The notes under the pieces: generated by a model | What the model was told of the DNA's origin: nothing | What the model saw: only the letters and a program-made list of their open reading frames with translations | Database searches by the model: none | Shown here: positions 1 to 12,609 of the stretch, in pieces | Position numbering within the stretch: position 1 is the stretch's first letter | How the letters are laid out: each line of letters starts with the position of its first letter | Source: an uncultured Bacteroides sp. | GTDB lineage: Bacteria > Bacteroidota > Bacteroidia > Bacteroidales > GCA-2748055 | Assembly: GCA_964453785.1 (NCBI GenBank) | Contig: CAYVRK010000007.1 | Span: forward strand, 57,511-121,510 | Direction: 5' to 3' | DNA length: 64,000 nucleotides | Position numbers and translations under genes: made by a program

Positions 1-372
1 ATCGTTTCCCGGAAATTTGGCGAGAAAATTGGTGTCCAGATGGCCCCTACCTTCGTCTATTACAATGCGGTCCCTGAAGGATACCGCAATGATAACTACT
101 CCCTGAATTTTGGAGGACGTTTCCAGGTGTTTGGCTTTCATTCCATCATATTTGAATATGACCAGCCACTGGTTCAGCCCACTGGGGATAATGCCAAAAC
201 CATCTACCCCAACATGGCACTGGGCATAGAAATCGGAACCAGTACACACGCATTCAGGATATTCGCATCCAATTACAACGCCATCGTCAAGAACAGGAGC
301 GTCGCTTTCAACGACAGAGACCCATTTGAAGGAGATTTCCAGTTCGGATTTAACATCTCGATCAGGTTTTAA
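1..372 (+). CDS. outer-membrane beta-barrel protein, C-terminal part (5' end lies outside window)
   Basis: Frame 1 is open from base 1 (IVSRKFGEKIGVQ precedes the tracked Met at 40). Alternating beta-strand-like pattern (FRIFASNY, FQFGFNISIRF) and a terminal Phe typical of OM barrels. The stop lies 2 nt before the next ATG. Confidence 0.55.
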   Translation: MVSRKFGEKIGVQMAPTFVYYNAVPEGYRNDNYSLNFGGRFQVFGFHSIIFEYDQPLVQPTGDNAKTIYPNMALGIEIGTSTHAFRIFASNYNAIVKNRSVAFNDRDPFEGDFQFGFNISIRF

Positions 373-374
373 CC

Positions 375-1340
375 ATGAGAAACCCAACAATCGCATTATC
401 CGGAATACTGCTGACTTGTGCATTTTCGCTTTGCGCCCAGTCAGTTGATACCACAAAGATCAAACCCGCCTTCCGCGAGGTCAATGAGTATGTGGATGAC
501 AATGAAAACTGTCTCAGATGCCATGGTGAGTTGAAGTATATCATCGAAAACCAGGGCAGGGTCATGACCGAACTGATGTGTCCTGACAGGGTCATCAATA
601 GGGATGCTTACTATTCGGGGGTCCATAAGGCATTTTCATGTTTGGATTGCCATTCGTATGAATTTGAGGTTTTCCCTCATTCGGTGGAAGCCAGGGTAAC
701 TGAGATGCTCTTGTGCATGGATTGTCATGGATACGACGAGACCTTTTCAAAATACCATTTTGAAGACATCGAAATGGAGTTTGCTGAAAGTACCCACAAC
801 ATGCCTGAATTCACTTGCTGGAAATGTCATGATCCCCATTCCTATAAGGCGTTCATGAGAAATGCCGATGATATCGAAGAAGCCGTGCTTTATGACAACA
901 GCATGTGCCTGAGCTGCCATGCGGATTTCAGTCGCTTTATGTTGCTGACCGACAGGAAGGAGATCAATGTGGTAGAGAGCCATAGCTGGTTGCCTAACCA
1001 GGTGGCCCATTTCAGAGCCGTCCGTTGCATTGAGTGTCATACGGAGATCAACGATTCCATCCTGATCGCTCATAAAATCCTGCCAAAATCAGAAGCGGTT
1101 AGAAACTGTACGGAATGTCATGCCAAAGACTCCAGGCTCATGCATACCCTCTACAAATTCGAGAGCCTTGAAAAACGAAAGGTTGGTTTTGTGAACAGCA
1201 TCATGATCAATAACTCCTACGTCATTGGTGCAAACCAAAACGTGCACCTCAACCGCTTAAGTTTGATCGTCTTCGGAATGACCTTACTGGTCATTGGGTT
1301 TCATACCTATTTGAGAATTAAAAAACAGAAAAAAAGCTGA
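375..1340 (+). CDS. heptaheme c-type cytochrome, C-terminally membrane anchored
   Basis: 321 aa with a signal peptide (ILLTCAFSLCAQS). Seven CXXCH motifs: CLRCH, CLDCH, CMDCH, CWKCH, CLSCH, CIECH, CTECH. C-terminal hydrophobic helix LSLIVFGMTLLVIGFHTYL followed by KKQKK. Confidence 0.85.
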   Translation: MRNPTIALSGILLTCAFSLCAQSVDTTKIKPAFREVNEYVDDNENCLRCHGELKYIIENQGRVMTELMCPDRVINRDAYYSGVHKAFSCLDCHSYEFEVFPHSVEARVTEMLLCMDCHGYDETFSKYHFEDIEMEFAESTHNMPEFTCWKCHDPHSYKAFMRNADDIEEAVLYDNSMCLSCHADFSRFMLLTDRKEINVVESHSWLPNQVAHFRAVRCIECHTEINDSILIAHKILPKSEAVRNCTECHAKDSRLMHTLYKFESLEKRKVGFVNSIMINNSYVIGANQNVHLNRLSLIVFGMTLLVIGFHTYLRIKKQKKS

Positions 1341-1341
1341 C

Positions 1342-1965
1342 ATGGCAACTAAAAAAATATATCTCTACCCAATATGGATCCGTCTCTGGCATGTCATCAA
1401 TGCCATGACGTTCCTTTTACTGGTAGCAACCGGGATTTGCCTGCATTATGCCTCTGCTGACAATAGCCTGATCCCTTTTCAGATTTCGGTGGGGATTCAT
1501 AACATTTGTGCCATTGTCCTTTCGGTCAACTATGGTGTTTTTGTCATCGGCAATGTGGTTACAGGAAATGGAAGGTATTACCGGAAGTGGAGAAAAAACC
1601 TTTGGCCCAAACTCTGGAAACAATTCCTTTTCTATGCCGTTGGAATTTTCAAGGGTGAGCCCCATCCCTTCCCCATTACCAAGAAACAAAAGTTCAATCC
1701 ACTGCAGAAAATTTCCTATGTATTTGCCATGTATCTTGGAATGCCTTTGCTGATTATCTCAGGGATTGGGCTCATGTTCCCGGAGAGGATCTCCAATACC
1801 ATATTTAAAATCAGTGGCCTCCTCTTTTATGATGTGCTCCACATCATTGTAGGCTTTGTGCTTTCCCTCTTCCTTTTGATTCATCTCTATACCTGTACTT
1901 TGGGCGATAAACCGGGTACTTTGTTTAAGAGCATGATCAACGGATACCACGAGGAACATGAATAA
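1342..1965 (+). CDS. membrane cytochrome b (FdnI/PhsC/HydC-like diheme b subunit)
   Basis: 207 aa with 4-5 hydrophobic helices carrying conserved His (WHVINAMTF, GIHNICAIV, VLHIIVGF, LLIHLY). No CXXCH. The ATG lies 1 nt after the upstream stop, suggesting translational coupling. Confidence 0.75.
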   Translation: MATKKIYLYPIWIRLWHVINAMTFLLLVATGICLHYASADNSLIPFQISVGIHNICAIVLSVNYGVFVIGNVVTGNGRYYRKWRKNLWPKLWKQFLFYAVGIFKGEPHPFPITKKQKFNPLQKISYVFAMYLGMPLLIISGIGLMFPERISNTIFKISGLLFYDVLHIIVGFVLSLFLLIHLYTCTLGDKPGTLFKSMINGYHEEHE

Positions 1966-2095: not shown

Positions 2096-4894
2096 ATGGG
2101 TCATAAAACCGATATTTCCTCTCGGGCAATAAAATTTCTGGGGCTATTGCTGCTGTCAGCATCCCTTCCACAGGTCTCCCTTTTCTCCCAATCCAATGAG
2201 GATTGCATGATGTGCCATGAGGATATTGAACTGGAAGGCATGTTGCGTGGAAGGAATGTATCCATGTTTGTGGATACCACGGTTTTTGAACGATCAGTCC
2301 ATCACGGCAACAGCTGCCTCTCCTGCCATGCGGATGCCGCAGATGAAGGCTTCCCCCACGCCGATGATCTGAAACCCGTCAACTGTGGCAATTGCCATAC
2401 CCAACAAATGGCAGATAACACCAAGGGTATTCACGGACAGGCACTCCTGTTGAATGATCCCAATGCGCCCAGCTGTAAAGAGTGCCATGGTCACCACGAT
2501 ATCCTGTATTATACCGATCCCAAATCCAGGACCTATAAAATGAACATTCCCATTTTATGCGGGACCTGTCATCGTGAAGGGGAAGTGGTTGCAAGGGCAT
2601 ACAACGTATCCGAACACAATATCGTTGAGAATTATACCCAGGGCATCCATGGAAGGGGCTTATTCGAAGCAGGGCTCATTGTAACAGCAACATGCAATGA
2701 TTGCCATGGCAACCACCTGGTGCTTCCGCATACAAGTCCTAATTCATCCATTTCACCCAACAGGATCGCTGGGACCTGCATGAAGTGCCATACCCGTATT
2801 GAAGAGGCTCACAAGAAGGTCATCAAAGGTGAATTATGGGAAAAGAATCCATCGGTCATCCCCTCCTGCTCACAGTGTCATCCTCCTCATAAAATTGATG
2901 TTCCCCAAATCCAGGCAAGGGTTTCGGATAACAAATGCATGAAGTGCCATAAGGAAGCAGATGTACATAAAATGGTTGACGGTGAACGTGTTTCTCTCCA
3001 GGTGGATGACAATATACTACCCAACTCGGTCCATAAAAATATACAATGCACCAAATGCCATACAGAGGTCACTGATCACCTCCCACGCCCCTGTTCCACC
3101 AACAAACCAGTGGACTGTTCTTCGTGTCACGCCGAAGTTTTTGATAATTATTTTAAAAGTGGCCACGGGCAGGCCCATTATAACAATGTGGAGAATGCCC
3201 CTTATTGTACCGACTGTCACGGTACCCATGCCACCAAATCCAGGTATGACGATACATCACCAGTATACCGGACAGCTATTCCATCGCTTTGTGGAGAGTG
3301 CCATAAGGAGGATGGTAAGGCACCCCGGTCCACTGAGTTGAAAGAGGTGGATGCCTTTGCCGATTATTCCATGAGTGTTCATGGTCAGGGACTCACAAGC
3401 AAGGGACTGACCGTTAGTGCAGTTTGTACAGACTGCCATACCACCCACCTCATGCTGAAGGAATCCAATCCCGAATCATCAGTACACCCTTCCAATGTCC
3501 AGCAAACCTGTGGAAATTGTCACAAAGGGATCCTTGAACAGTACCTGAAGAGTGACCATTCCTTTACCGAAGAGTTTCCAAAAAAGGAGTATCCAACCTG
3601 CGTGAGGTGCCACACTGCTCACGGGATCTCGACTGTGAGTCAGGACAAATTCATGAATGAGGTCACCACCCAGTGCGGATCCTGCCATGAAGAAACTGCA
3701 AAGACTTTTCTGAAAACCTATCATGGCAAAGCGTACCAGCTGGGTTACTACGAAACGGCCCGATGTTCTAATTGTCACGGTTCCCATAACATCTTAAAGG
3801 CTGAGAATCCCGAATCAATGATTGCAGAACAGAATCTTGTCACCACATGCGGAGCATGTCACCCGGGAGCGAACAAACGTTTTACAGGCTATTTAAGTCA
3901 CGCTACCTATAAGGACGATCCCAAATTGCATGTCGCTTATATCTTTATGACTGCCCTGTTGCTGGGTGTATTTTTCTTCTTCGGCATTCACCTGCTCATG
4001 TGGCTTCCGCGTTCAGTTTCAGAAAGGAGAAAGAAAAGAAAAGAGGAACCCAGGGAGATCGGGAACCAATACATCAAACGCTTCTCCCGCAATCAACGGA
4101 TCACCCACGTCTTTGTAATCATCAGTTTCATCCTGCTAGCACTGACCGGAATGATGCTTAAGTTTGCCAATATGGAATGGGCCAAATTTCTGGCAAGACT
4201 CATGGGTGGGGTGCAAAACGCCGGAGTTCTGCACCGTATGGGAGCTGTCATTACATTCGGTTACTTTTCCTTTCACATCCTCAACCTGGTGAGAATGAAG
4301 AGAAGGAAAAGGCTCTCCATGACCAAATTTATTTTCGGGAAGAATTCGCTCTGGTTTAATAAGCAGGATATTCTTGATTTCGTGGCCACCATCAAATGGT
4401 TTGTGGGCAAAGGACCAAGGCCCAATTATGGCAGATGGACCTACTGGGAGAAGTTCGACTACCTGGCTGTTTTCTGGGGGGTAGCCATCATTGGTTTCAG
4501 TGGCCTGATACTATGGTTTCCTGTACTCTTTACAAAGTTCTTTCCCGGCTGGGTGATCAATTTTTCACAGATCATCCACAGTGACGAGGCCCTGTTGGCC
4601 GTTGGTTTCATCTTTACAATTCACTTCTTTAACACCCATTTCCGGCCGGAAGCATTTCCGATGGATACAGTCATATTCACCGGCCATATGCCCCTGGAGC
4701 ATTTCAAACATGAAAGGCCGCGTGAATATCAGGAATTGAAAGATTCAGGAAAGCTGGAAGAAGCCATCGTGGAAAAACACTATTCAAAGGAGAACATGAG
4801 GTTGATCCGGCTCTTCGGATTCCTTGCCCTGGCCATTGGTGTGATCCTGATTGGGTTCATCGTCTTCACCTTCATTTCAGGAGGTGGACACTAG
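2096..4894 (+). CDS. 19-heme c-type cytochrome fused to a six-helix cytochrome-b-like membrane domain
   Basis: 932 aa with a signal peptide. Nineteen CXXCH motifs between residues ~37 and ~590 (CMMCH ... CGACH). Six hydrophobic helices follow, with His-rich helices ITHVFVIISF, VLHRMGAVITFGYFSFH and IIHSDEALLAVGFIFTIHFFNTHF. Confidence 0.85.
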   Translation: MGHKTDISSRAIKFLGLLLLSASLPQVSLFSQSNEDCMMCHEDIELEGMLRGRNVSMFVDTTVFERSVHHGNSCLSCHADAADEGFPHADDLKPVNCGNCHTQQMADNTKGIHGQALLLNDPNAPSCKECHGHHDILYYTDPKSRTYKMNIPILCGTCHREGEVVARAYNVSEHNIVENYTQGIHGRGLFEAGLIVTATCNDCHGNHLVLPHTSPNSSISPNRIAGTCMKCHTRIEEAHKKVIKGELWEKNPSVIPSCSQCHPPHKIDVPQIQARVSDNKCMKCHKEADVHKMVDGERVSLQVDDNILPNSVHKNIQCTKCHTEVTDHLPRPCSTNKPVDCSSCHAEVFDNYFKSGHGQAHYNNVENAPYCTDCHGTHATKSRYDDTSPVYRTAIPSLCGECHKEDGKAPRSTELKEVDAFADYSMSVHGQGLTSKGLTVSAVCTDCHTTHLMLKESNPESSVHPSNVQQTCGNCHKGILEQYLKSDHSFTEEFPKKEYPTCVRCHTAHGISTVSQDKFMNEVTTQCGSCHEETAKTFLKTYHGKAYQLGYYETARCSNCHGSHNILKAENPESMIAEQNLVTTCGACHPGANKRFTGYLSHATYKDDPKLHVAYIFMTALLLGVFFFFGIHLLMWLPRSVSERRKKRKEEPREIGNQYIKRFSRNQRITHVFVIISFILLALTGMMLKFANMEWAKFLARLMGGVQNAGVLHRMGAVITFGYFSFHILNLVRMKRRKRLSMTKFIFGKNSLWFNKQDILDFVATIKWFVGKGPRPNYGRWTYWEKFDYLAVFWGVAIIGFSGLILWFPVLFTKFFPGWVINFSQIIHSDEALLAVGFIFTIHFFNTHFRPEAFPMDTVIFTGHMPLEHFKHERPREYQELKDSGKLEEAIVEKHYSKENMRLIRLFGFLALAIGVILIGFIVFTFISGGGH

Positions 4895-4895
4895 T

Positions 4896-5585
4896 CTATT
4901 GGACCACAGTGGAATTCTCCAGCAGAACTTCGTAGCTGTAGCCGTATCCGAAATCCAGGTTCAAAGCCAGGATGCCTTCAAGGATTACCACTGTGCCCAC
5001 TTCCAATGACTCCATGGAAGTGGCTGTGAGGTCGAATTTGCCTTCAAATTCGGTCCCGTCCTGCAGATGTACCCAGTTTCGCTCCATAATGGCCGGATTA
5101 TACTTGGTGACCTCTCCTTTTACACGAACTGTTTTCCCTTCATAAGCCTCCGGATCAGCATAGATCTCTGCAATTGTAACCGTACCTTCAACCCTTTCCA
5201 CTGCGACCTTAACCTTCTCTTTGGGGGCCATGCTGCCAGGAGTCATCTCCTGTACAGGCATCACTTTGGAATCATCACCCATAAAAAGAGCCTCCACGAA
5301 AAGAACCTCATCAAATGTACGGTCGAGCTCTTTGCTGTAAAAATCCTTCATAAGCATCCCTCCCTGATAATGATAGGTCTCTCCAGGACTGGCCTGCATG
5401 GTGGGTACGGCAATCCAGAATTCAGTTTTCTTACTTTTGACCAGCAGGTAGGTATAATCGCTCACCTGCTCGACTGCCTGTACTTTAACGGTGTTATCAG
5501 TGTTTTCTGCTTTGTTCCCGCAGGAGGATGCAGTGAGTATCAATAAGAGGATGATCAGGTGGTTCAGTTTCGCTTTCATTTTCAT
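4896..5585 (-). CDS. lipoprotein of unknown function with OB-fold-like C-terminal domain
   Basis: 229 aa with a lipobox (LLILTASSC followed by GNK). The segment GKTVRVKGEVTKYNPAIMERNWVHLQDGT resembles periplasmic bacterial OB-fold proteins. The gene abuts the convergent 19-heme gene with a 1-nt gap. Confidence 0.6.
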   Translation of the reverse strand: MKMKAKLNHLIILLLILTASSCGNKAENTDNTVKVQAVEQVSDYTYLLVKSKKTEFWIAVPTMQASPGETYHYQGGMLMKDFYSKELDRTFDEVLFVEALFMGDDSKVMPVQEMTPGSMAPKEKVKVAVERVEGTVTIAEIYADPEAYEGKTVRVKGEVTKYNPAIMERNWVHLQDGTEFEGKFDLTATSMESLEVGTVVILEGILALNLDFGYGYSYEVLLENSTVVQ

Positions 5586-5663: not shown

Positions 5664-7163
5664 CTAATACAGGGCTCTGTGACAATCCGAACAAGCCATC
5701 TCCTTCCACGCCTCCCCAATGTCTACCGGGTGCCTGAAATCCAGAGCGTTATCAATGGTTGTGGATTCATAATTGTCTGGCCCGCCCTGAGCAAGGATTG
5801 TATGGCACAGATTACAATCCCTTGAAATGATGCGTCCATCTTCACTTTGATGATTCCCGTTATGGCATCTGAAGCACCCGTTGAACTCCATGTGGCCAAT
5901 ATGAATCGGATAGGCGTTCCAGTTCACTTTCATTTCAGGAAAGATGTTTTTTGAATATCCTTCAAGCAACCCGTCAATTGTCATTTGGATCAGGTCCTGG
6001 TTTTTTTCATCAATTTCCGGATAAGCAGACTTGTAAAACGCTTCAACGCTCTCCCTGATCTGGACCTTGCCCGAATCCCGGTCCGTAAACTCCTGGTTGA
6101 ACACCTGCATGGCAAGAAATTTCACCTCGGGAAGTTCAGCGGGAATGCTTCCTGCAGCGATCAGGTCGTCGGTAAACTTCTGAGGTGCCTGGTAATTGTG
6201 TGAGGGCCGGTTGTGGCAATCCAGACAGTCCATCTCCCTGATTTCTAAAGTATCAAAAGCTTCGGGACCAACAGTTTCATAGATATCCTGGTAAATTACA
6301 GTGTCCCCGGTAGCCTTATCAATATAGCGTACCCAGGGTATATATTCTCTCTTTTCAGAAGAAGCCAGGTAATCTATTTTAACATCGCTGTGTATATGCC
6401 AATGAATTCCTTCCTGCAAACCCAGGGCACTGCTCTTGGATCCGATTTTCATTTTAAGCTGGATATCCCACTCCGTATTTGCTGAATCGGCCAGATAATT
6501 TCTTTCGTTTCTTAACCGGTAGGAGTAAAATTTCTCCGGCCAGTGGCACTCTTCACAGGTCTCACGTGCTGGTCTCAGGTTATGGATGGGCGTTTTTATG
6601 GGTGTAGGATATTTATGAAAGAGAACAGAATATACCTGGTACATTCCCGACAATTTGCTTTTTACGTACCAGCTTGCTCCGGTCCCCACATGGCATTCCA
6701 CACATGCGACCCGGGAGTGTGCCGACTCCTGATAGGCCACATACTCGGGTTCCATGACCTGGTGACACAGGGTTCCGCAGAACTCGTTTGATTCCGTATA
6801 ATGAAAGGCCTGGTAACTGCCTATTCCGGTTAACATGAGAAAGACAATGGTGACGAAGATAAAGACCGCCACAGCATTCCATTGCCTCGAGTCCCTCAGG
6901 TCAATGACCATCCATCTCCTGGTACCCTCTTCACCTTCGCGCCTGATTCTCTTAGCCCTCCTGGACATACCAACCGGGATCAGAATGAGGCCTATAATCA
7001 AAAATACCGGAAGCACAATATAAGTGATGATTCCCGTATACGAACCCCCCTCATGAAACAACCAATTGGTAAGCATCAAAAAAATAACACTCAGGATGCT
7101 CACGGCTGCAATGATGCTGCCGAGCATTGAAAGCGGATTGTAAAAAGTCTTCGGGAATTTCAT
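5664..7163 (-). CDS. membrane-anchored NapC/NirT-type multiheme cytochrome (ImcH-like)
   Basis: 499 aa with two N-terminal TM helices (LGSIIAAVSILSVIFLMLTNWLF, IITYIVLPVFLIIGLILIPVG) and a third (AVAVFIFVTIVFLMLTGIG). One CX3CH (FCGTLCH) plus six CXXCH: CVECH, CEECH, CLDCH, CFRCH, CNLCH, CSDCH. Confidence 0.8.
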   Translation of the reverse strand: MKFPKTFYNPLSMLGSIIAAVSILSVIFLMLTNWLFHEGGSYTGIITYIVLPVFLIIGLILIPVGMSRRAKRIRREGEEGTRRWMVIDLRDSRQWNAVAVFIFVTIVFLMLTGIGSYQAFHYTESNEFCGTLCHQVMEPEYVAYQESAHSRVACVECHVGTGASWYVKSKLSGMYQVYSVLFHKYPTPIKTPIHNLRPARETCEECHWPEKFYSYRLRNERNYLADSANTEWDIQLKMKIGSKSSALGLQEGIHWHIHSDVKIDYLASSEKREYIPWVRYIDKATGDTVIYQDIYETVGPEAFDTLEIREMDCLDCHNRPSHNYQAPQKFTDDLIAAGSIPAELPEVKFLAMQVFNQEFTDRDSGKVQIRESVEAFYKSAYPEIDEKNQDLIQMTIDGLLEGYSKNIFPEMKVNWNAYPIHIGHMEFNGCFRCHNGNHQSEDGRIISRDCNLCHTILAQGGPDNYESTTIDNALDFRHPVDIGEAWKEMACSDCHRALY

Positions 7164-7293: not shown

Positions 7294-7323
7294 TAAAAAA
7301 CCTCCGGCAAACCAGACCGGAGG
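7294..7323 (-). terminator. rho-independent terminator after tetraheme cytochrome gene
   Basis: Stem CCTCCGG (7301-7307) / CCGGAGG (7317-7323) with a 9-nt loop. A-run 7295-7300 on plus gives a U-run after the stem on the minus strand. About 40 nt past the stop. Confidence 0.7.
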
Positions 7324-7363: not shown

Positions 7364-7894
7364 CTAGTTCGCAGCAGGATTAGGATGGGCAATCTTTGCT
7401 GAAAACTCGGCATAATTAAATGCCTTATAGGTTGGGCTCCCTGAATTATGGCAGCTCTTGCATACCTCTTCTGTAGGCAGAATCATTCCTTTTTGCAAAG
7501 CCAATTCCTGGTTTTTCATGATTGAGGCTCCCTTATACATACTTCCCGGACCATGACACGACTCACATGAAACGCCTTCAGACATCACAATTCCGGCCAC
7601 CAGGCTTTTGTCAATATGACCAACTGTGGAGTGGCATTTAACACAGGCCGCATCGGTGGTCGGATCAGCAATTCCCTTTGCAGTGGCAATTTTCTTTGCT
7701 TCATCCGTGGCTAGGGTCTTCATGGCATTGGCATGGGGTCCCTTGAGCCAGACATTATACTGATCACCTGTAGCCGGCTTCATATGGCACATTTTACACT
7801 TTGCTGAACCGATGTATTTGAAATCCTGGGCTTGCAGAAACGTGCCAGCAAAAAAGGCCAGAACAACGAGGAATAATAATTTCTTTGATAACAT
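7364..7894 (-). CDS. periplasmic tetraheme cytochrome c (cytochrome c554-like small multiheme)
   Basis: 176 aa with a signal peptide ending FLQAQ. Four CXXCH: CKMCH, CVKCH, CESCH, CKSCH. The N-terminal pattern YIGSAKCKMCH..W..GPHANA is typical of the c554-type family. Confidence 0.85.
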   Translation of the reverse strand: MLSKKLLFLVVLAFFAGTFLQAQDFKYIGSAKCKMCHMKPATGDQYNVWLKGPHANAMKTLATDEAKKIATAKGIADPTTDAACVKCHSTVGHIDKSLVAGIVMSEGVSCESCHGPGSMYKGASIMKNQELALQKGMILPTEEVCKSCHNSGSPTYKAFNYAEFSAKIAHPNPAAN

Positions 7895-8087: not shown

Positions 8088-9059
8088 TTAGTCAACTACA
8101 TAATCGTAACCCATGATGGAACTTGCACTCCATTTGTGGCTGGACAGATCGCTGTAGATCATTCCATTGGCTCCGAAAAGCAATGTTTTTGCATCGTAGC
8201 CGATTACACGAAGGTAGGCAGCCATGTTGGCACTGGTCTGCCCGGTCCAGCAATAAACAACCACAGCCTTATCGGTGGGAAGGGTTTTCAGATCACCATC
8301 AAGGCTCATGCCCACTTTGGGGGTATATTGCATGGCTCCCGGAATATGCCCGATTTCTGTGTAATCTGCTTCGGCCCAGTAATTGGCAATGTAGTAGCTT
8401 TCCAGGGCTCCGAATACCGTGGCATTGGTAATCTTTGCAGGATCGAATCCTTCTGCAAAAACTTCTTCAATCCGCGCATCCAAAATCTCTTTTCCGGTTT
8501 TAAATCCCGTATTCAATACGGGGAGTTCTCCTTCCGGACCCTTCTCAGTAGCGTCTTTTGTAAATTCTGAGGTATACATACTTTTGGTATTGTTGTTCCA
8601 GCTACCGGCAAAGTCAGTATTCCATGAACACATTCCGAATCCCATGGAATAGGCATTGTCATACCCGGCTAGTCTCAAAAGGCAGGTTGCCCAGGCTGCT
8701 GTCTGGCCGGAATAACATACAATAATGATCTCATCTTTGCTGTCATCGTCAGTTGTGCCTTCAAGATGAGTAAGCACATCTTTGGAAGAAACATTCACAG
8801 CATTCTCGATATGTCCAAGTGCATAATCAGCAGCTGAACGGATATCAATGATGTAGTTGGCTCCCGTGGTATTCAGTGTTTTTACATGCTCTGCGCTTAC
8901 AATGGCAGGCATGGCTGTGGCAGCATAGTTGCCTCCATCGGCTGACTCAAGATACTCCACAAGGACCTGCGCTTCGTTGACATCTTCTTCTTTATTACAA
9001 GATACAGCGAACAAAGCAAGGAACAGGATGGCTACCATCCAGATTTTTGTCATTTTCAT
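8088..9059 (-). CDS. tandem-rhodanese (sulfurtransferase) lipoprotein
   Basis: 323 aa with lipobox LFAVSC followed by NKEEDV. Two rhodanese-like domains, each with a candidate active-site Cys loop (VCYSGQTAAW and YCWTGQTSAN). Confidence 0.8.
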   Translation of the reverse strand: MKMTKIWMVAILFLALFAVSCNKEEDVNEAQVLVEYLESADGGNYAATAMPAIVSAEHVKTLNTTGANYIIDIRSAADYALGHIENAVNVSSKDVLTHLEGTTDDDSKDEIIIVCYSGQTAAWATCLLRLAGYDNAYSMGFGMCSWNTDFAGSWNNNTKSMYTSEFTKDATEKGPEGELPVLNTGFKTGKEILDARIEEVFAEGFDPAKITNATVFGALESYYIANYWAEADYTEIGHIPGAMQYTPKVGMSLDGDLKTLPTDKAVVVYCWTGQTSANMAAYLRVIGYDAKTLLFGANGMIYSDLSSHKWSASSIMGYDYVVD

Positions 9060-9110: not shown

Positions 9111-10478
9111 TTATTTAGTCCATGAAGACGGCAACTTTCCATCTACGGTCATAAATTCGGAAGAAGACAATTCCCAGTCCTCCAGCAAATCAGACTTGAA
9201 AAGGAAAAGATTTCTATTGACCATTGAATCGCCTTCCATGCGGATGTGGCAGTTGAAAGAACATCCTTGTCCTGGTTCAACATGGGTCCGTGAGGTCCAC
9301 TTCAGAATATTATGTGGTGAAGTGTAGTTGTAGATTGGTAATGCATCGAAGTCCGCATATTCATCAACGCCGTACATCTCCCAGTTATCTGGAGCTCCAA
9401 GTGTCCGCCTGACCACTGTAAAATCAGAATTAAATCCATTTTTAACTTCAGGAATGGGATTGATGGCGATTTTAAAATCCATATAAGAAGGGACCCGTGC
9501 ACCCTCGCCGTGCACATGACAGCTTCCACAGTTGTTGTAATCCTGTGAATGGCAAACATAACAGCTGAAATCTCCGTAGTGCATTGAATGGTAGTTATTT
9601 GCAGTTTCGACACCATCATGACAATCCTCACATTCGGGTAGTTCACTGTAGGCGTACCGCTGCTCCACAGGCTGACCGTCTCCGTGAAGTTCATGACCAT
9701 CATGACAACTGAGGCATTCAAATTTCAGTTTTTTCTGATGCACATCGGGCTCGGTACCGGGAGCAACACCCAGGAAGGCATGTCCTCCCCTGGATACATG
9801 ACAGGTCACACATACATTGAGCATATGCGGGGTCTTGTTGAAATTATGCCCCTTGGACAACCCGCCCCCACCGGAAGCCGGGCGAACCACATGGCAATTC
9901 CCGCAGGTACCATGGCAATGTGCACAGTTGTCGTTATAACCCTCAATCTGATGCGCTGGCAGCTGGTCAAAATCCTGGGAACCATTCAGGCCGCTTCTGA
10001 TGGCCACTTTCCTTTTCTGGCCTGTACCATTATGGATGCTTGTGGTAAAATTATCCGCAATGTCCTTGTGGCAGGTTCCACACTTTTCTTCATAATAGAG
10101 TGATGGGTGCTTGATGAAATCGCCTGTATGGGCCAGCTCTTTTTCCCCGGTATTACCTACTCCGTTGTGGCATCCTGTACATCCGACGGAATAGTGCCCT
10201 GAGCTTTTAAAGGATTCATATCCTTCTCCCCCCATATATACCCTGTCATAGGGCTCATAATGGGGAGCCTCTCCGCCACATCCGCCAACAGGAGCATCTG
10301 TATCTGGCGTGTAGACTGCAATCAGCCTTTCGTAATCCGTATGGCATCCTTCGCAGGAATTTGCCTTGACTTCTCCGTTGCCTTTTCCCGGAATGGTATA
10401 ATTGGTACATGCGATGCCGGTAAAAACAAACACCACAAATAACAATAGCAGACCAGATCCAAACTTAATTCCTTTCAT
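9111..10478 (-). CDS. decaheme c-type cytochrome lipoprotein
   Basis: 455 aa with lipobox FTGIAC. Ten CXXCH: CEGCH, CTGCH, CGTCH, CAHCH, CGNCH, CVTCH, CLSCH, CEDCH, CYVCH, CGSCH. One additional CX3CH (CSFNCH) near the C-terminus. Confidence 0.85.
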   Translation of the reverse strand: MKGIKFGSGLLLLFVVFVFTGIACTNYTIPGKGNGEVKANSCEGCHTDYERLIAVYTPDTDAPVGGCGGEAPHYEPYDRVYMGGEGYESFKSSGHYSVGCTGCHNGVGNTGEKELAHTGDFIKHPSLYYEEKCGTCHKDIADNFTTSIHNGTGQKRKVAIRSGLNGSQDFDQLPAHQIEGYNDNCAHCHGTCGNCHVVRPASGGGGLSKGHNFNKTPHMLNVCVTCHVSRGGHAFLGVAPGTEPDVHQKKLKFECLSCHDGHELHGDGQPVEQRYAYSELPECEDCHDGVETANNYHSMHYGDFSCYVCHSQDYNNCGSCHVHGEGARVPSYMDFKIAINPIPEVKNGFNSDFTVVRRTLGAPDNWEMYGVDEYADFDALPIYNYTSPHNILKWTSRTHVEPGQGCSFNCHIRMEGDSMVNRNLFLFKSDLLEDWELSSSEFMTVDGKLPSSWTK

Positions 10479-10711: not shown

Positions 10712-11416
10712 ATGACTAACATGGACAATTTGGAAAGATTTTCAGGTTGCACCCTAAGCTTTCACCAGTGTAGATGCTTTGAAACACTGACGGTGGAACA
10801 GAAGGAATTTCTGGATGCCCACTCTGTAAGGATCAAATACCGCAAAGGTGAAATGATTTGCAAGCAGGGTGGCTTTGTTTCACATGTCATGTATATGGAA
10901 CAGGGCCTTGCAAAAGTCTTTTTGGAAAACGGATCCAATTCCCTGGTTTTGAGGGTTATTCCGGACGGAAACTTCCTCGGTCTTGCTTCTATTTCCGAAG
11001 AGCATTCCACTTTCCCTTATTCAGCCATGGCTTACGTGGATTCGGATATAAGGCAGATCGACATCCATGCTTTCCGTAAATTGATGGAACTGAATAACCA
11101 ATTTGTAAAGGAGATTATCAATATCCTCAGCGCAAACAGTCTCCAGATTTACGGCAGGTTCTTCTGTCTCACTTACAAACAGGCTTTCGGCAGACTGGCA
11201 GATATCCTGCTATGCCTTGCCGACAGAATATTCAAGAATACGGAATTTGACCTGCCCCTTTCCCGAAAAGAGCTGGCAGAACTTTCCGGTATGAGTTCGG
11301 AGACTGTGATCCGGATGCTGAAAGAATTTAAAGAGGAAGGCCTGATCAGGATGGATGGAAAAGCAATCCAGGTGATGGATTATGAAAGGCTGAAACAGAT
11401 CAGTGATACCGGGTAA
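10712..11416 (+). CDS. Crp/Fnr family transcriptional regulator
   Basis: 234 aa with a cNMP-binding-like beta-roll (YRKGEMICKQGG...) and a C-terminal HTH (SRKELAELSGMSSETVIRMLKEFKEEGLI). N-terminal Cys cluster C13-X6-C20-X-C22. Confidence 0.85.
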   Translation: MTNMDNLERFSGCTLSFHQCRCFETLTVEQKEFLDAHSVRIKYRKGEMICKQGGFVSHVMYMEQGLAKVFLENGSNSLVLRVIPDGNFLGLASISEEHSTFPYSAMAYVDSDIRQIDIHAFRKLMELNNQFVKEIINILSANSLQIYGRFFCLTYKQAFGRLADILLCLADRIFKNTEFDLPLSRKELAELSGMSSETVIRMLKEFKEEGLIRMDGKAIQVMDYERLKQISDTG

Positions 11417-11484: not shown

Positions 11485-12609
11485 CTACTTTTCCGATAAG
11501 GCTTCAATTGTATTTTCAAGAACAGCTGCTATATAGGCCGGATTGTGAAATCCATGACTCCTGTCTTCCTTGATTGCACTATAGTTAACATGAGCCGCTG
11601 TCAGTGATGTACTGAATACACCAGGCTTCATCAGGTACGCATCGCCACCAGCATCAGAAGGATACATAATTCCTGCATCCACCAGAAGGGTATATAACTG
11701 ATCCAACAGTCCATCGGTTTCTGCCATGACTTCCTCAACTTTATCATCAAGGTTTTCGGCGATACCACCATCCGAATGGCACTCCAGGCAGGATGCAGGC
11801 CAGTTATAGGTCTCACTCCCATGGAATTCCCAGGTCATGGCCATGGAGTGTCCTGTGAGGTCACCAAATCCATCATTCATATGACAGGTAACACATCCAT
11901 TCTCAACTTTTCCCAGAACATGATGACTGGTTGGATAGGCAGTACTTCCCGTGAACTCAAAAAGATCCATTCCCGTAAGTAAATTATACTGTGGACCATG
12001 ATGAACACCAGTGCGGTTCATTGCTGCAGTGATGGTAACTGTCGTTGTGCCAGCGTCAAAATTTGCCCACAATGAATCTACCACAAGGGAAGAAGCTACC
12101 ATTTGGTGACATGAAGCGCACTGATTTCCGGTACCTATATCCACACCCATAGAGCCAGTCGCCGGCTCTGGCATACCTGCATTGGTCAGCCCCCAATCTG
12201 CCTCGGTATAAGTGTCATGAATGTTATGGCATGTGTAACAATTTGGTTGTGTAACATTCGCATAAGGTGTATTACTGGCACCAACCAGATTATCAAGAAA
12301 ACCCTGGCTGGTATGACATCCGGCACAATTGTAAAGTGGCCCAAAGGTCCTGTTTGTATACCCGGAGACATCTCCCGTTGAATGCCCTGAGTTTGCATAT
12401 TGCCTGGACTTTGTGACAATCACTTGATCATCACTATGACATACAGTACAGGTTGCATTGGCATCTATACCATCAATACCATCCGTACCATTTTCACCAT
12501 CGAGGCCAGGAGGCCCTGCCGGACCTTCGCAACTGCTCAGGATAAATGCGCCTGCAAGGAGGATCGCAAAACCACTAAGCAGACTGATCATAGAAATATT
12601 CTTTTTCAT
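11485..12609 (-). CDS. hexaheme c-type cytochrome lipoprotein with N-terminal collagen-like (GXY)7 segment
   Basis: 374 aa with lipobox ILSSC. This is followed directly by E-GPA-GPP-GLD-GEN-GTD-GID-GID. Six CXXCH: CTVCH, CAGCH, CYTCH, CASCH, CVTCH, CLECH. The C-terminal helix contains SHGFHNPAY. Confidence 0.85.
   Translation of the reverse strand: MKKNISMISLLSGFAILLAGAFILSSCEGPAGPPGLDGENGTDGIDGIDANATCTVCHSDDQVIVTKSRQYANSGHSTGDVSGYTNRTFGPLYNCAGCHTSQGFLDNLVGASNTPYANVTQPNCYTCHNIHDTYTEADWGLTNAGMPEPATGSMGVDIGTGNQCASCHQMVASSLVVDSLWANFDAGTTTVTITAAMNRTGVHHGPQYNLLTGMDLFEFTGSTAYPTSHHVLGKVENGCVTCHMNDGFGDLTGHSMAMTWEFHGSETYNWPASCLECHSDGGIAENLDDKVEEVMAETDGLLDQLYTLLVDAGIMYPSDAGGDAYLMKPGVFSTSLTAAHVNYSAIKEDRSHGFHNPAYIAAVLENTIEALSEK

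Follow-up and report, generated by a model that had tools for sequence, protein, structure and literature searches.

Which kind of cytochrome is encoded by the reverse-strand gene at positions 5664-7163 of a 64,000-nt stretch of DNA from an uncultured Bacteroides sp. (assembly GCA_964453785.1, contig CAYVRK010000007.1, positions 57,511 to 121,510; the whole stretch is referred to as the window), and what might this cytochrome do? This gene is part of a cytochrome island extending over the first 12.6 kb of the window. A preliminary description, made from the letters alone, had likened its product to ImcH of Geobacter sulfurreducens, and had drawn attention to a first heme motif with an unusual CX3CH spacing and to a CbcL-like gene nearby. 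The analysis described here identifies the product almost certainly as an inner-membrane c-type cytochrome of the ImcH family, as judged from its sequence. The best overall explanation of the data is very probably that of an ImcH-family cytochrome which oxidises menaquinol and feeds periplasmic cytochromes.

Architecture and family of the window protein

The gene is an intact open reading frame (ORF), and its product consists of three N-terminal transmembrane (TM) helices followed by a domain with seven heme motifs (Table 1). The protein contains exactly 14 cysteines, every one of which lies within these motifs. Hydropathy, an AlphaFold2 model (35-sequence alignment as input; mean predicted local distance difference test score 85, predicted template modelling score 0.77) and the motif positions bear out the three helices, the six CXXCH motifs with the additional FCGTLCH, and thus the seven potential hemes of the preliminary description. 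Because the loop between TM2 and TM3 (residues 63-96) is rich in Arg and Lys, the N-terminus and this loop are predicted by the positive-inside rule to be cytoplasmic, and the heme domain to be periplasmic. The periplasm is also where c-type hemes are attached.

The likeness to ImcH of G. sulfurreducens (GSU3259, NP_954300.1) extends well past the CXXCH spacing. For the comparison a reference of 274 N-terminal GSU3259 residues was used, taken from a machine-read (optical character recognition) copy of the first 300 columns of the alignment in the supplement of Pimenta et al. (bioRxiv 10.1101/2023.05.03.539133), in which some letters are lost. BLASTP aligns the window protein to these N-terminal residues with 43% identity over 275 columns (199 bits, E 4e-65). 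The aligned part includes the three TM helices, which in GSU3259 comprise residues 13-35, 45-67 and 100-122 (PMC6295460, Table S3), and non-heme blocks such as KLSGxxQV, PIxTPIxNLRPAR, CHWPEKFYS and GIHWH.

The correspondence also holds for the individual functional residues. Pimenta et al. predict His137, 152, 161, 210, 256, 258, 316, 321, 423, 433, 453, 474 and 491 as axial ligands in G. sulfurreducens ImcH, and list Gln179, Glu127, Lys173 and Tyr188 alongside them. All 13 histidines have a counterpart in the window protein (His134, 149, 158, 207, 254, 256, 317, 322, 424, 434, 454, 478 and 495), and the four other residues correspond to Gln176, Glu124, Lys170 and Tyr185, respectively. The motif and TM positions of 71 ImcH homologs from 12 phyla are tabulated by Zhong and Shi 2018 (PMC6295460, Table S3); this table was read as 0-based, its motif numbers being one below the residue numbering of Pimenta et al. 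The successive motif spacings are 25, 49, 106, 117, 20 and 38 in GSU3259 (507 residues) and 25, 49, 110, 117, 20 and 41 in the window protein (499 residues). The latter series is identical to that of the Draconibacterium sediminis homolog WP_045033316.1 (490 residues), the sole Bacteroidetes entry in the table. Table S3 enters the CX3CH site as if it were CX2CH, which is relevant when residue numbers are compared between papers.

Members of the ImcH family combine three TM helices, a NapC/NirT region, the CX3CH site, similarity to GSU3259 outside the heme motifs and the axial and pocket residues with five to nine further CXXCH motifs at the family spacing, six in the Geobacter type. All these features are present in the window protein, which has six such motifs. 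Its nearest relatives (61-100% identity) are proteins of metagenome-assembled genomes (MAGs) of uncultured Bacteroidota, Marinilabiliaceae and Bacteroidales, annotated as 'NapC/NirT family cytochrome c' or hypothetical; homologs at 50-54% identity occur in Draconibacterium, Mangrovibacterium, Maribellus, Labilibaculum and Melioribacter genomes. No NCBIfam model specific to the ImcH family matched the window protein. The GSU3259 DNA was sought by exact cloning-primer patterns, GGAGGAGATGTATGACATTGCGCAA in genome contigs and GATGTATGACATTGCGCAAAACC in metagenome contigs, with 0 matches in each. Geobacter ImcH was not found among the 150 best cluster representatives by its N-terminus, residue numbering or motif fingerprint.

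Part of the protein resembles the NapC/NirT/NrfH quinol dehydrogenases. The Pfam NapC/NirT N-terminal domain PF03264 matches residues 97-190 (E 5e-11, 43 bits versus a cut-off of 24.1), and HMMER aligns FCGTLCHQVMEP to FC-TSCH-IMNP of Desulfovibrio NrfH. Because of this alignment and the PF03264 coverage, the CX3CH site can be equated with the first heme site of NapC/NirT proteins, lengthened by one residue, at the position to which the preliminary description had assigned FCGTLCH. Among solved structures, similarity was detected to NrfH alone (PDB entry 2j7a_C; sequence match E 0.004), and no ImcH structure is present in the PDB set searched. A Foldseek search with the AlphaFold2 model likewise gives 2j7a_C as best match, with probability 1.00, a template modelling score of 0.54 (NrfH length) and a root mean square deviation of 3.6 Å over 113 columns.

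These similarities raise the alternative that the protein is an anchor of the NapC/NirT/NrfH type, which would pass electrons from quinol to one dedicated reductase, soluble in the periplasm, for nitrite, a sulfur compound, trimethylamine N-oxide (TMAO) or dimethyl sulfoxide (DMSO), and not to a chain for extracellular electron transfer. In its favour, NrfH, TorC and NapC are the best matches among the curated models, NrfH is the sole structural match, a rhodanese and a PhsC-like cytochrome b are encoded close by, and the authors of the Labilibaculum genomes interpret a similar cytochrome as NrfHA. However, the matches to the NCBIfam models are confined to region 89-210 and score far below the cut-offs: 54.1 versus 134.2 for NrfH (TIGR03153, E 1.7e-14), 20.8 versus 310.6 for NapC/NirT (TIGR02161), 27.5 versus 455 for TorC and 17.1 versus 349 for NapC. 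Classical members have one TM helix, four hemes (five in TorC/DorC) and 150-390 residues, whereas three TM helices, seven motifs and 499 residues are found here, and the full-length relatives of the protein are ImcH homologs. In addition, no nrfA, napA, torA, dmsA or phsA gene lies within 12 kb, and a search of the genes at 1-26 kb found none for the partner reductases (nrfA, napAB, torA, dorA). The window protein thus holds a NapC/NirT-like module without being a classical member, because of its three TM helices, its seven hemes and the lack of a nearby partner reductase gene. Identity as an NrfH-type anchor was rejected on its architecture, the sub-threshold scores and the absent partner gene, and a function of this kind is unlikely.

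The first heme site

The CX3CH site is conserved far beyond this single gene. In the 120 closest database homologs (61-100% identity), which derive from many independent assemblies, site 1 invariably reads C-G-x-x-C-H (120/120). A HMMER search over 1.84 billion cluster representatives yielded 3395 relatives at E <= 1e-3 and 702 at E <= 1e-30. From the close homologs and cluster representatives 272 sequences were fetched, 258 of which contain the N-terminal site; the remaining 14 are either truncated at the N-terminus or fusions that have the site past the scanned region. The site has the form CX3CH-x-x-M-x-P in 244 of the 258 sequences, CX3CH-x-M-x-P in nine and the canonical CXXCH-x-x-M-x-P in five, so that CX3CH is present in 253/258 family members. 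In the 35-sequence alignment, with identities down to 30%, Phe128, Cys129, Cys133, His134, Met137 and Pro139 are invariant. Conservation of the motif and its spacing in thousands of homologs is far beyond chance.

A one-codon insertion artefact, or a dead site without heme that would make the protein effectively a six-heme cytochrome, therefore has a vanishingly small probability. The five sequences with CXXCH at this site, together with an Anaeromyxobacter dehalogenans row of a published alignment, could be taken in its support, as the extra residue is not strictly required. It is contradicted by the conservation in the 120 close homologs and in 253 of the 258 family members, by the invariance of Cys129, Cys133 and His134, and by G. 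sulfurreducens ImcH, which carries the same motif and contains 6.6 Fe per protein. A sequencing error was rejected on the two conservation counts, and the artefact version of this explanation is thereby already refuted. The canonical form (FCGS-CH) was observed in P0132, P0167, P0177, P0248 and P0255 and in the Anaeromyxobacter row; the existence of these rare members means that the extra residue can be lost, and contradicts the statement by Zhong and Shi 2018 (PMC6295460) that all homologs carry CX3CH.

The CX3CH site was described as a feature of ImcH by Levar et al. 2014 (PMC4251993) and by Zhong and Shi 2018. As judged from these sequences it is a known hallmark of the family, and neither a sequencing error nor a novelty. 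Thus, the feature singled out in the preliminary description is real and conserved in orthologs, but it is not special to the window gene. Publications of 2014 and 2018 had already covered the family itself, the CX3CH at its first site and its occurrence in Bacteroidetes, and the window gene is a further typical member. Architecture, family membership and conservation of the first site are properties observed for the window protein itself.

The surroundings of heme 1 show a similar degree of conservation. Met137, in the sequence CX3CH-x-x-M, is present in 258/258 family members, and the position of Lys170 is Lys in 256/258 and that of Gln176 Gln in 243/258. The published ligand pair of heme 1 in ImcH is His/Gln, an assignment that rests on an AlphaFold model (Pimenta et al.); in NrfH the Met of the CXXCHXM motif is the proximal ligand of heme 1. 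The invariant Met137 hints at an NrfH-like heme-1 site, unlike the published His/Gln model. The combination of a variable Gln176 and an invariant Met137 may bear on that model; it is family-wide and not specific to the window gene.

The cytochrome island and its conservation

The genes around the ImcH-like gene are listed in Table 1. Homologs of all three types of Geobacter quinol oxidase, CbcBA, CbcL and ImcH, lie within 7.2 kb. The close-by CbcL-like gene mentioned in the preliminary description is thus real and the clustering was understated; its end lies 770 nt from the 3' end of the ImcH-like gene, to which it is convergent, with the ORF for a 229-residue protein in between. Its product combines an N-terminal multiheme cytochrome c domain, periplasmic in this family, with a C-terminal diheme cytochrome b like HydC/FdnI, as is characteristic for CbcL/MtrH/MtoC proteins. 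The motif positions match those of the published 19-heme homologs PKP08298.1 and KKN60529.1 with offsets of 18-20 and 8-9, respectively, which by sequence places the protein in the published 19-heme subgroup of CbcL/MtrH/MtoC. The CbcB-like cytochrome b is most similar to the PhsC subunit of thiosulfate reductase (E 9e-56, just under the cut-off).

Table 1. Positions in the window of the ImcH-like gene, its membrane helices and heme sites, and the neighbouring genes
Feature	Position	Strand	Remarks
ImcH-like gene	5664-7163	-	ATG start; 499 aa
TM helix 1	7071-7127	-	residues 13-31; hydropathy; AlphaFold2 helix 10-36
TM helix 2	6978-7034	-	residues 44-62; hydropathy; AlphaFold2 helix 41-75
TM helix 3	6819-6875	-	residues 97-115; hydropathy; AlphaFold2 helix 92-123; PF03264 match begins at 97
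Heme site 1, CGTLCH (CX3CH)	6762-6779	-	residues 129-134; 14 residues past TM3
Met137	6753-6755	-	invariant; aligned to Met of NrfH CXXCHXM motif
Heme site 2, CVECH	6690-6704	-	residues 154-158
Lys170 to Gln176 (KSKLSGMYQ region)	6636-6656	-	counterparts of K173 and Q179 in G. sulfurreducens ImcH; proposed quinol/heme-1 pocket
Gln176 codon	6636-6638	-	counterpart of published distal ligand Q179
Heme site 3, CEECH	6543-6557	-	residues 203-207
Heme site 4, CLDCH	6213-6227	-	residues 313-317; within conserved MDCxDCHNR block
Heme site 5, CFRCH	5862-5876	-	residues 430-434
Heme site 6, CNLCH	5802-5816	-	residues 450-454
Heme site 7, CSDCH	5679-5693	-	residues 491-495; missing from six-heme branch of ImcH family
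DUF5777 membrane beta-barrel gene, 3' end	1-372	+	C-terminal part; cut by window start
CbcA-like cytochrome	375-1340	+	321 aa; 7 CXXCH and C-terminal TM helix
CbcB-like diheme cytochrome b	1342-1965	+	207 aa; starts 1 nt after CbcA-like gene
CbcL-like fusion	2096-4894	+	932 aa; 19 CXXCH and C-terminal cytochrome b561 domain (PF01292, residues 597-746)
Lipoprotein-like ORF	4896-5585	-	229 aa; 78 nt downstream of ImcH-like gene; no family match
Intrinsic-terminator-like hairpin	7295-7323	-	CCTCCGG..CCGGAGG, then TTTTTT; between c554-like and ImcH-like genes
c554-like secreted tetraheme cytochrome	7364-7894	-	176 aa; upstream of ImcH-like gene
Rhodanese lipoprotein	8088-9059	-	323 aa; two rhodanese domains; between c554-like and 455-aa cytochrome genes
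Multiheme lipoprotein	9111-10478	-	455 aa; 10 CXXCH and one CX3CH
CRP/FNR regulator	10712-11416	+	
Six-heme lipoprotein	11485-12609	-	collagen-like Gly-X-Y stretch GPAGPPGLDGENGTDGIDGID directly past lipobox; weak MtrC/MtrF domain matches

The terminator-like hairpin upstream of the ImcH-like gene suggests that this gene may have its own promoter. A scan for sigma-70-type promoters, which is ill-suited to those of Bacteroidota, gave no more sites than shuffled controls, and no promoter is claimed. Beyond 12.9 kb the window contains housekeeping or Bacteroidota-typical genes, including those for acyl-CoA carboxylase subunits, a protein sorted by the type IX secretion system and a TonB-dependent receptor.

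To what extent this arrangement recurs was examined in 80 genome loci that encode ImcH relatives at 43-63% identity, counting neighbours within 10 kb of the ImcH gene. The loci include those of the cultured Mangrovibacterium lignilyticum, M. marinum, Maribellus sp., Ancylomarina sp., Marinifilum sp. and Labilibaculum manganireducens. A CbcL-like neighbour is found in 25/80 loci, CbcA/CbcB-like neighbours in 24-25, a c554-like cytochrome in 24, a DUF5777 barrel in 23 and a fused CcsBA heme lyase in 16. The commonest arrangement, seen for example in Mangrovibacterium, is a collinear series of genes for a CRP-type regulator, a multiheme lipoprotein, the DUF5777 barrel, CbcA, CbcB, CbcL, ImcH, c554 and CcsBA, and this conserved cluster recurs in Marinilabiliales and related genomes. 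In the window, by contrast, the ImcH gene lies on the strand opposite to the CbcA, CbcB and CbcL genes. The individual components had been reported from Bacteroidetes before, ImcH and CbcL by Zhong and Shi (PMC6295460), and cbcBA in Prolixibacter, Marinilabiliales and Labilibaculum by Joshi et al.

The six-heme collagen-like lipoprotein (in locus L016 at 2703-3737) is conserved beside the DUF5777 barrel in 26/80 loci, and may form an outer-membrane module resembling a porin-cytochrome complex. A homolog of the 229-residue lipoprotein-like ORF lies just downstream of ImcH in two loci (L008 and L020). The gene at the end of the conserved cluster encodes a fused CcsBA (ResB plus CcsA), the cytochrome c synthase of system II (for example at 12285-15398 in L016); no CcsBA gene was found in the 64-kb window. 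Near ImcH in the other loci no homolog of the rhodanese lipoprotein was found. The 455-residue lipoprotein falls into no NCBIfam family, its Pfam matches are limited to generic cytochrome domains, and no homolog was detected in the 80 related loci; its own CX3CH motif is CSFNCH (residues 406-411, nt 9246-9263). Bacteroidota-like ImcH genes (48-54% identity) are also present on contigs assigned to Heimdallarchaeota, Gloeobacterales cyanobacterium, Syntrophomonadaceae and Oryzomonas MAGs (L023, L060, L022 and L061); these probably represent binning contamination and not true hosts.

Proposed function and comparison with known systems

Within the family, an inner-membrane location, seven covalently attached hemes and the oxidation of menaquinol are known only for G. 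sulfurreducens ImcH. The recombinant protein was measured at about 6.6 Fe per protein; menadiol reduces it in part, and it can in turn reduce PpcA. Its redox window is -0.43 to -0.04 V, and it is needed for extracellular acceptors above about -0.1 V versus the standard hydrogen electrode. By analogy, a role of the window protein as a quinol oxidase that feeds extracellular electron transfer is probable, and the most likely process is the oxidation of menaquinol to supply periplasmic cytochromes for the reduction of extracellular Mn(IV) or Fe(III). Labilibaculum manganireducens 59.10-2M, the genome of which encodes a homolog with the same CGTLCH site (L043), reduces manganese oxide and has been described as a 'fermentative metal reducer'.

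The mechanism may be envisaged as follows. TM3 and the first four hemes would form a quinol dehydrogenase module like that of NapC/NirT/NrfH. The pocket for the binding and oxidation of menaquinol would lie beside heme 1, where the membrane meets the periplasm, and be lined by the CX3CH site, Glu124, Met137, Lys170, Gln176 and Tyr185. Since the protons would leave on the periplasmic side, the step would be electroneutral, as reported for G. sulfurreducens ImcH (Pimenta et al.). A chain of seven hemes at close spacing would then carry the electrons to soluble cytochromes of the periplasm, for which the adjacent c554-like tetraheme cytochrome is a candidate with a role like that of PpcA in Geobacter. 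From there they would move outward to an extracellular acceptor, probably Mn(IV) or Fe(III). For the loading with heme, the quinol, the course of the electrons, the partner and the final acceptor, this scheme relies on inference from G. sulfurreducens ImcH and NrfH.

Several points weigh against this reading. The C-terminal half of the protein was compared with GSU3259 through published residue numbers and motif positions only. Gln176 is replaced by Arg, Glu or Lys in 15/258 family members and Met137 never, which leaves the ligand set of heme 1 unsettled. The window protein and its Bacteroidota homologs are known from sequence alone, and, with a rhodanese and a PhsC-like cytochrome b encoded nearby, a role in the respiration of sulfur compounds is possible.

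The same modules could also operate in reverse, the protein then reducing quinone with electrons drawn from extracellular or periplasmic donors, as in Fe(II) oxidation or cathodic growth. NapC/NirT-type and CbcL/MtoC-type modules occur in metal reducers and metal oxidisers alike, and the redox window of G. sulfurreducens ImcH overlaps that of menaquinone. However, the ImcH homologs found by Zhong and Shi all belong to Fe(III) reducers, the relatives in culture are anaerobes that ferment or reduce metals, and nothing resembling an oxidation module of the Cyc2 or MtoA type is encoded in the cluster. Reverse operation is therefore very unlikely, and menaquinol oxidation is retained as the preferred reading.

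In Geobacter the quinol-oxidase modules divide the redox-potential range. The proposal of the preliminary description that the modules here are likewise tuned to different acceptor potentials is an analogy to that system. There is also a small chance that ImcH here does not work as a stand-alone quinol dehydrogenase of the NapC/NirT type but cooperates with the CbcB-like diheme cytochrome b. Such cooperation would take place in one conserved island of CbcBA-like, CbcL-like and ImcH modules, the DUF5777 barrel, multiheme lipoproteins and often the CcsBA heme lyase. This idea is prompted by natural fusions, by gene order and by the invariant Met137. In two unrelated cluster representatives, P0149 (734 residues) and P0170 (771 residues), an N-terminal cytochrome b561 domain (PF01292) is fused to a complete ImcH, although an artefact of gene calling or assembly is possible; residues 2-205 of P0149 are 44% identical to the CbcB-like protein of the window. 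In five of the 80 loci a CbcB-like gene lies within ~400 nt upstream of ImcH. Other N-terminal fusions to ImcH involve a PAS domain (P0246) and a Macro domain (P0235).

The identification is useful mainly for annotation. Genes of this kind number in the thousands and go by no other name than 'NapC/NirT family cytochrome c' or 'hypothetical', although members of the ImcH family can be reliably recognised by the combination of three TM helices, CX3CH-x-x-M-x-P and fixed motif spacing. For the source organism, the gene marks a Bacteroidota member that is likely to reduce extracellular metals or electrodes. An island with all three types of Geobacter quinol oxidase is, moreover, a convenient system to ask whether a potential-dependent division of labour is general. 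The conserved island and the natural cytochrome b-ImcH fusions offer a modest possibility of an operating mode that is not yet described.

Compared with the NrfH/NapC/NirT/CymA proteins (Desulfovibrio vulgaris NrfH, PDB entries 2J7A and 2VR0), the window protein shares the module of the last TM helix and the first four hemes, TM3 being the counterpart of their single anchor helix. Also shared are the location of heme site 1 next to the quinol pocket at the surface of the membrane, the Met-x-Pro sequence following this site and a Lys in the following helix. The window protein differs by two extra N-terminal TM helices and by ~290 extra C-terminal residues with three more hemes, and has CX3CH-x-x-M at site 1 where the NrfH-type proteins have CXXCH-x-M.

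With G. sulfurreducens ImcH, the window protein has in common the three N-terminal TM helices, the NapC/NirT-like region, CX3CH right after TM3 and six more CXXCH motifs. The differences are small in the protein itself (499 versus 507 residues; spacings of 110 and 41 versus 106 and 38) and larger in its setting. G. sulfurreducens belongs to the Desulfuromonadota, and its imcH is monocistronic and unlinked to cbcL and cbcBA, whereas the host of the window gene belongs to the Bacteroidota and the gene sits within a cytochrome island; the CbcL protein of G. sulfurreducens has 9 hemes, in contrast to the 19 CXXCH motifs of the CbcL-like protein in the window. The catalogued ImcH homologs of the Fibrobacteres-Chlorobi-Bacteroidetes group, from D. 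sediminis (WP_045033316.1), Melioribacter roseus (WP_014855859.1) and Caldithrix abyssi (Cabys_1801), have the same seven-motif architecture as the window protein.

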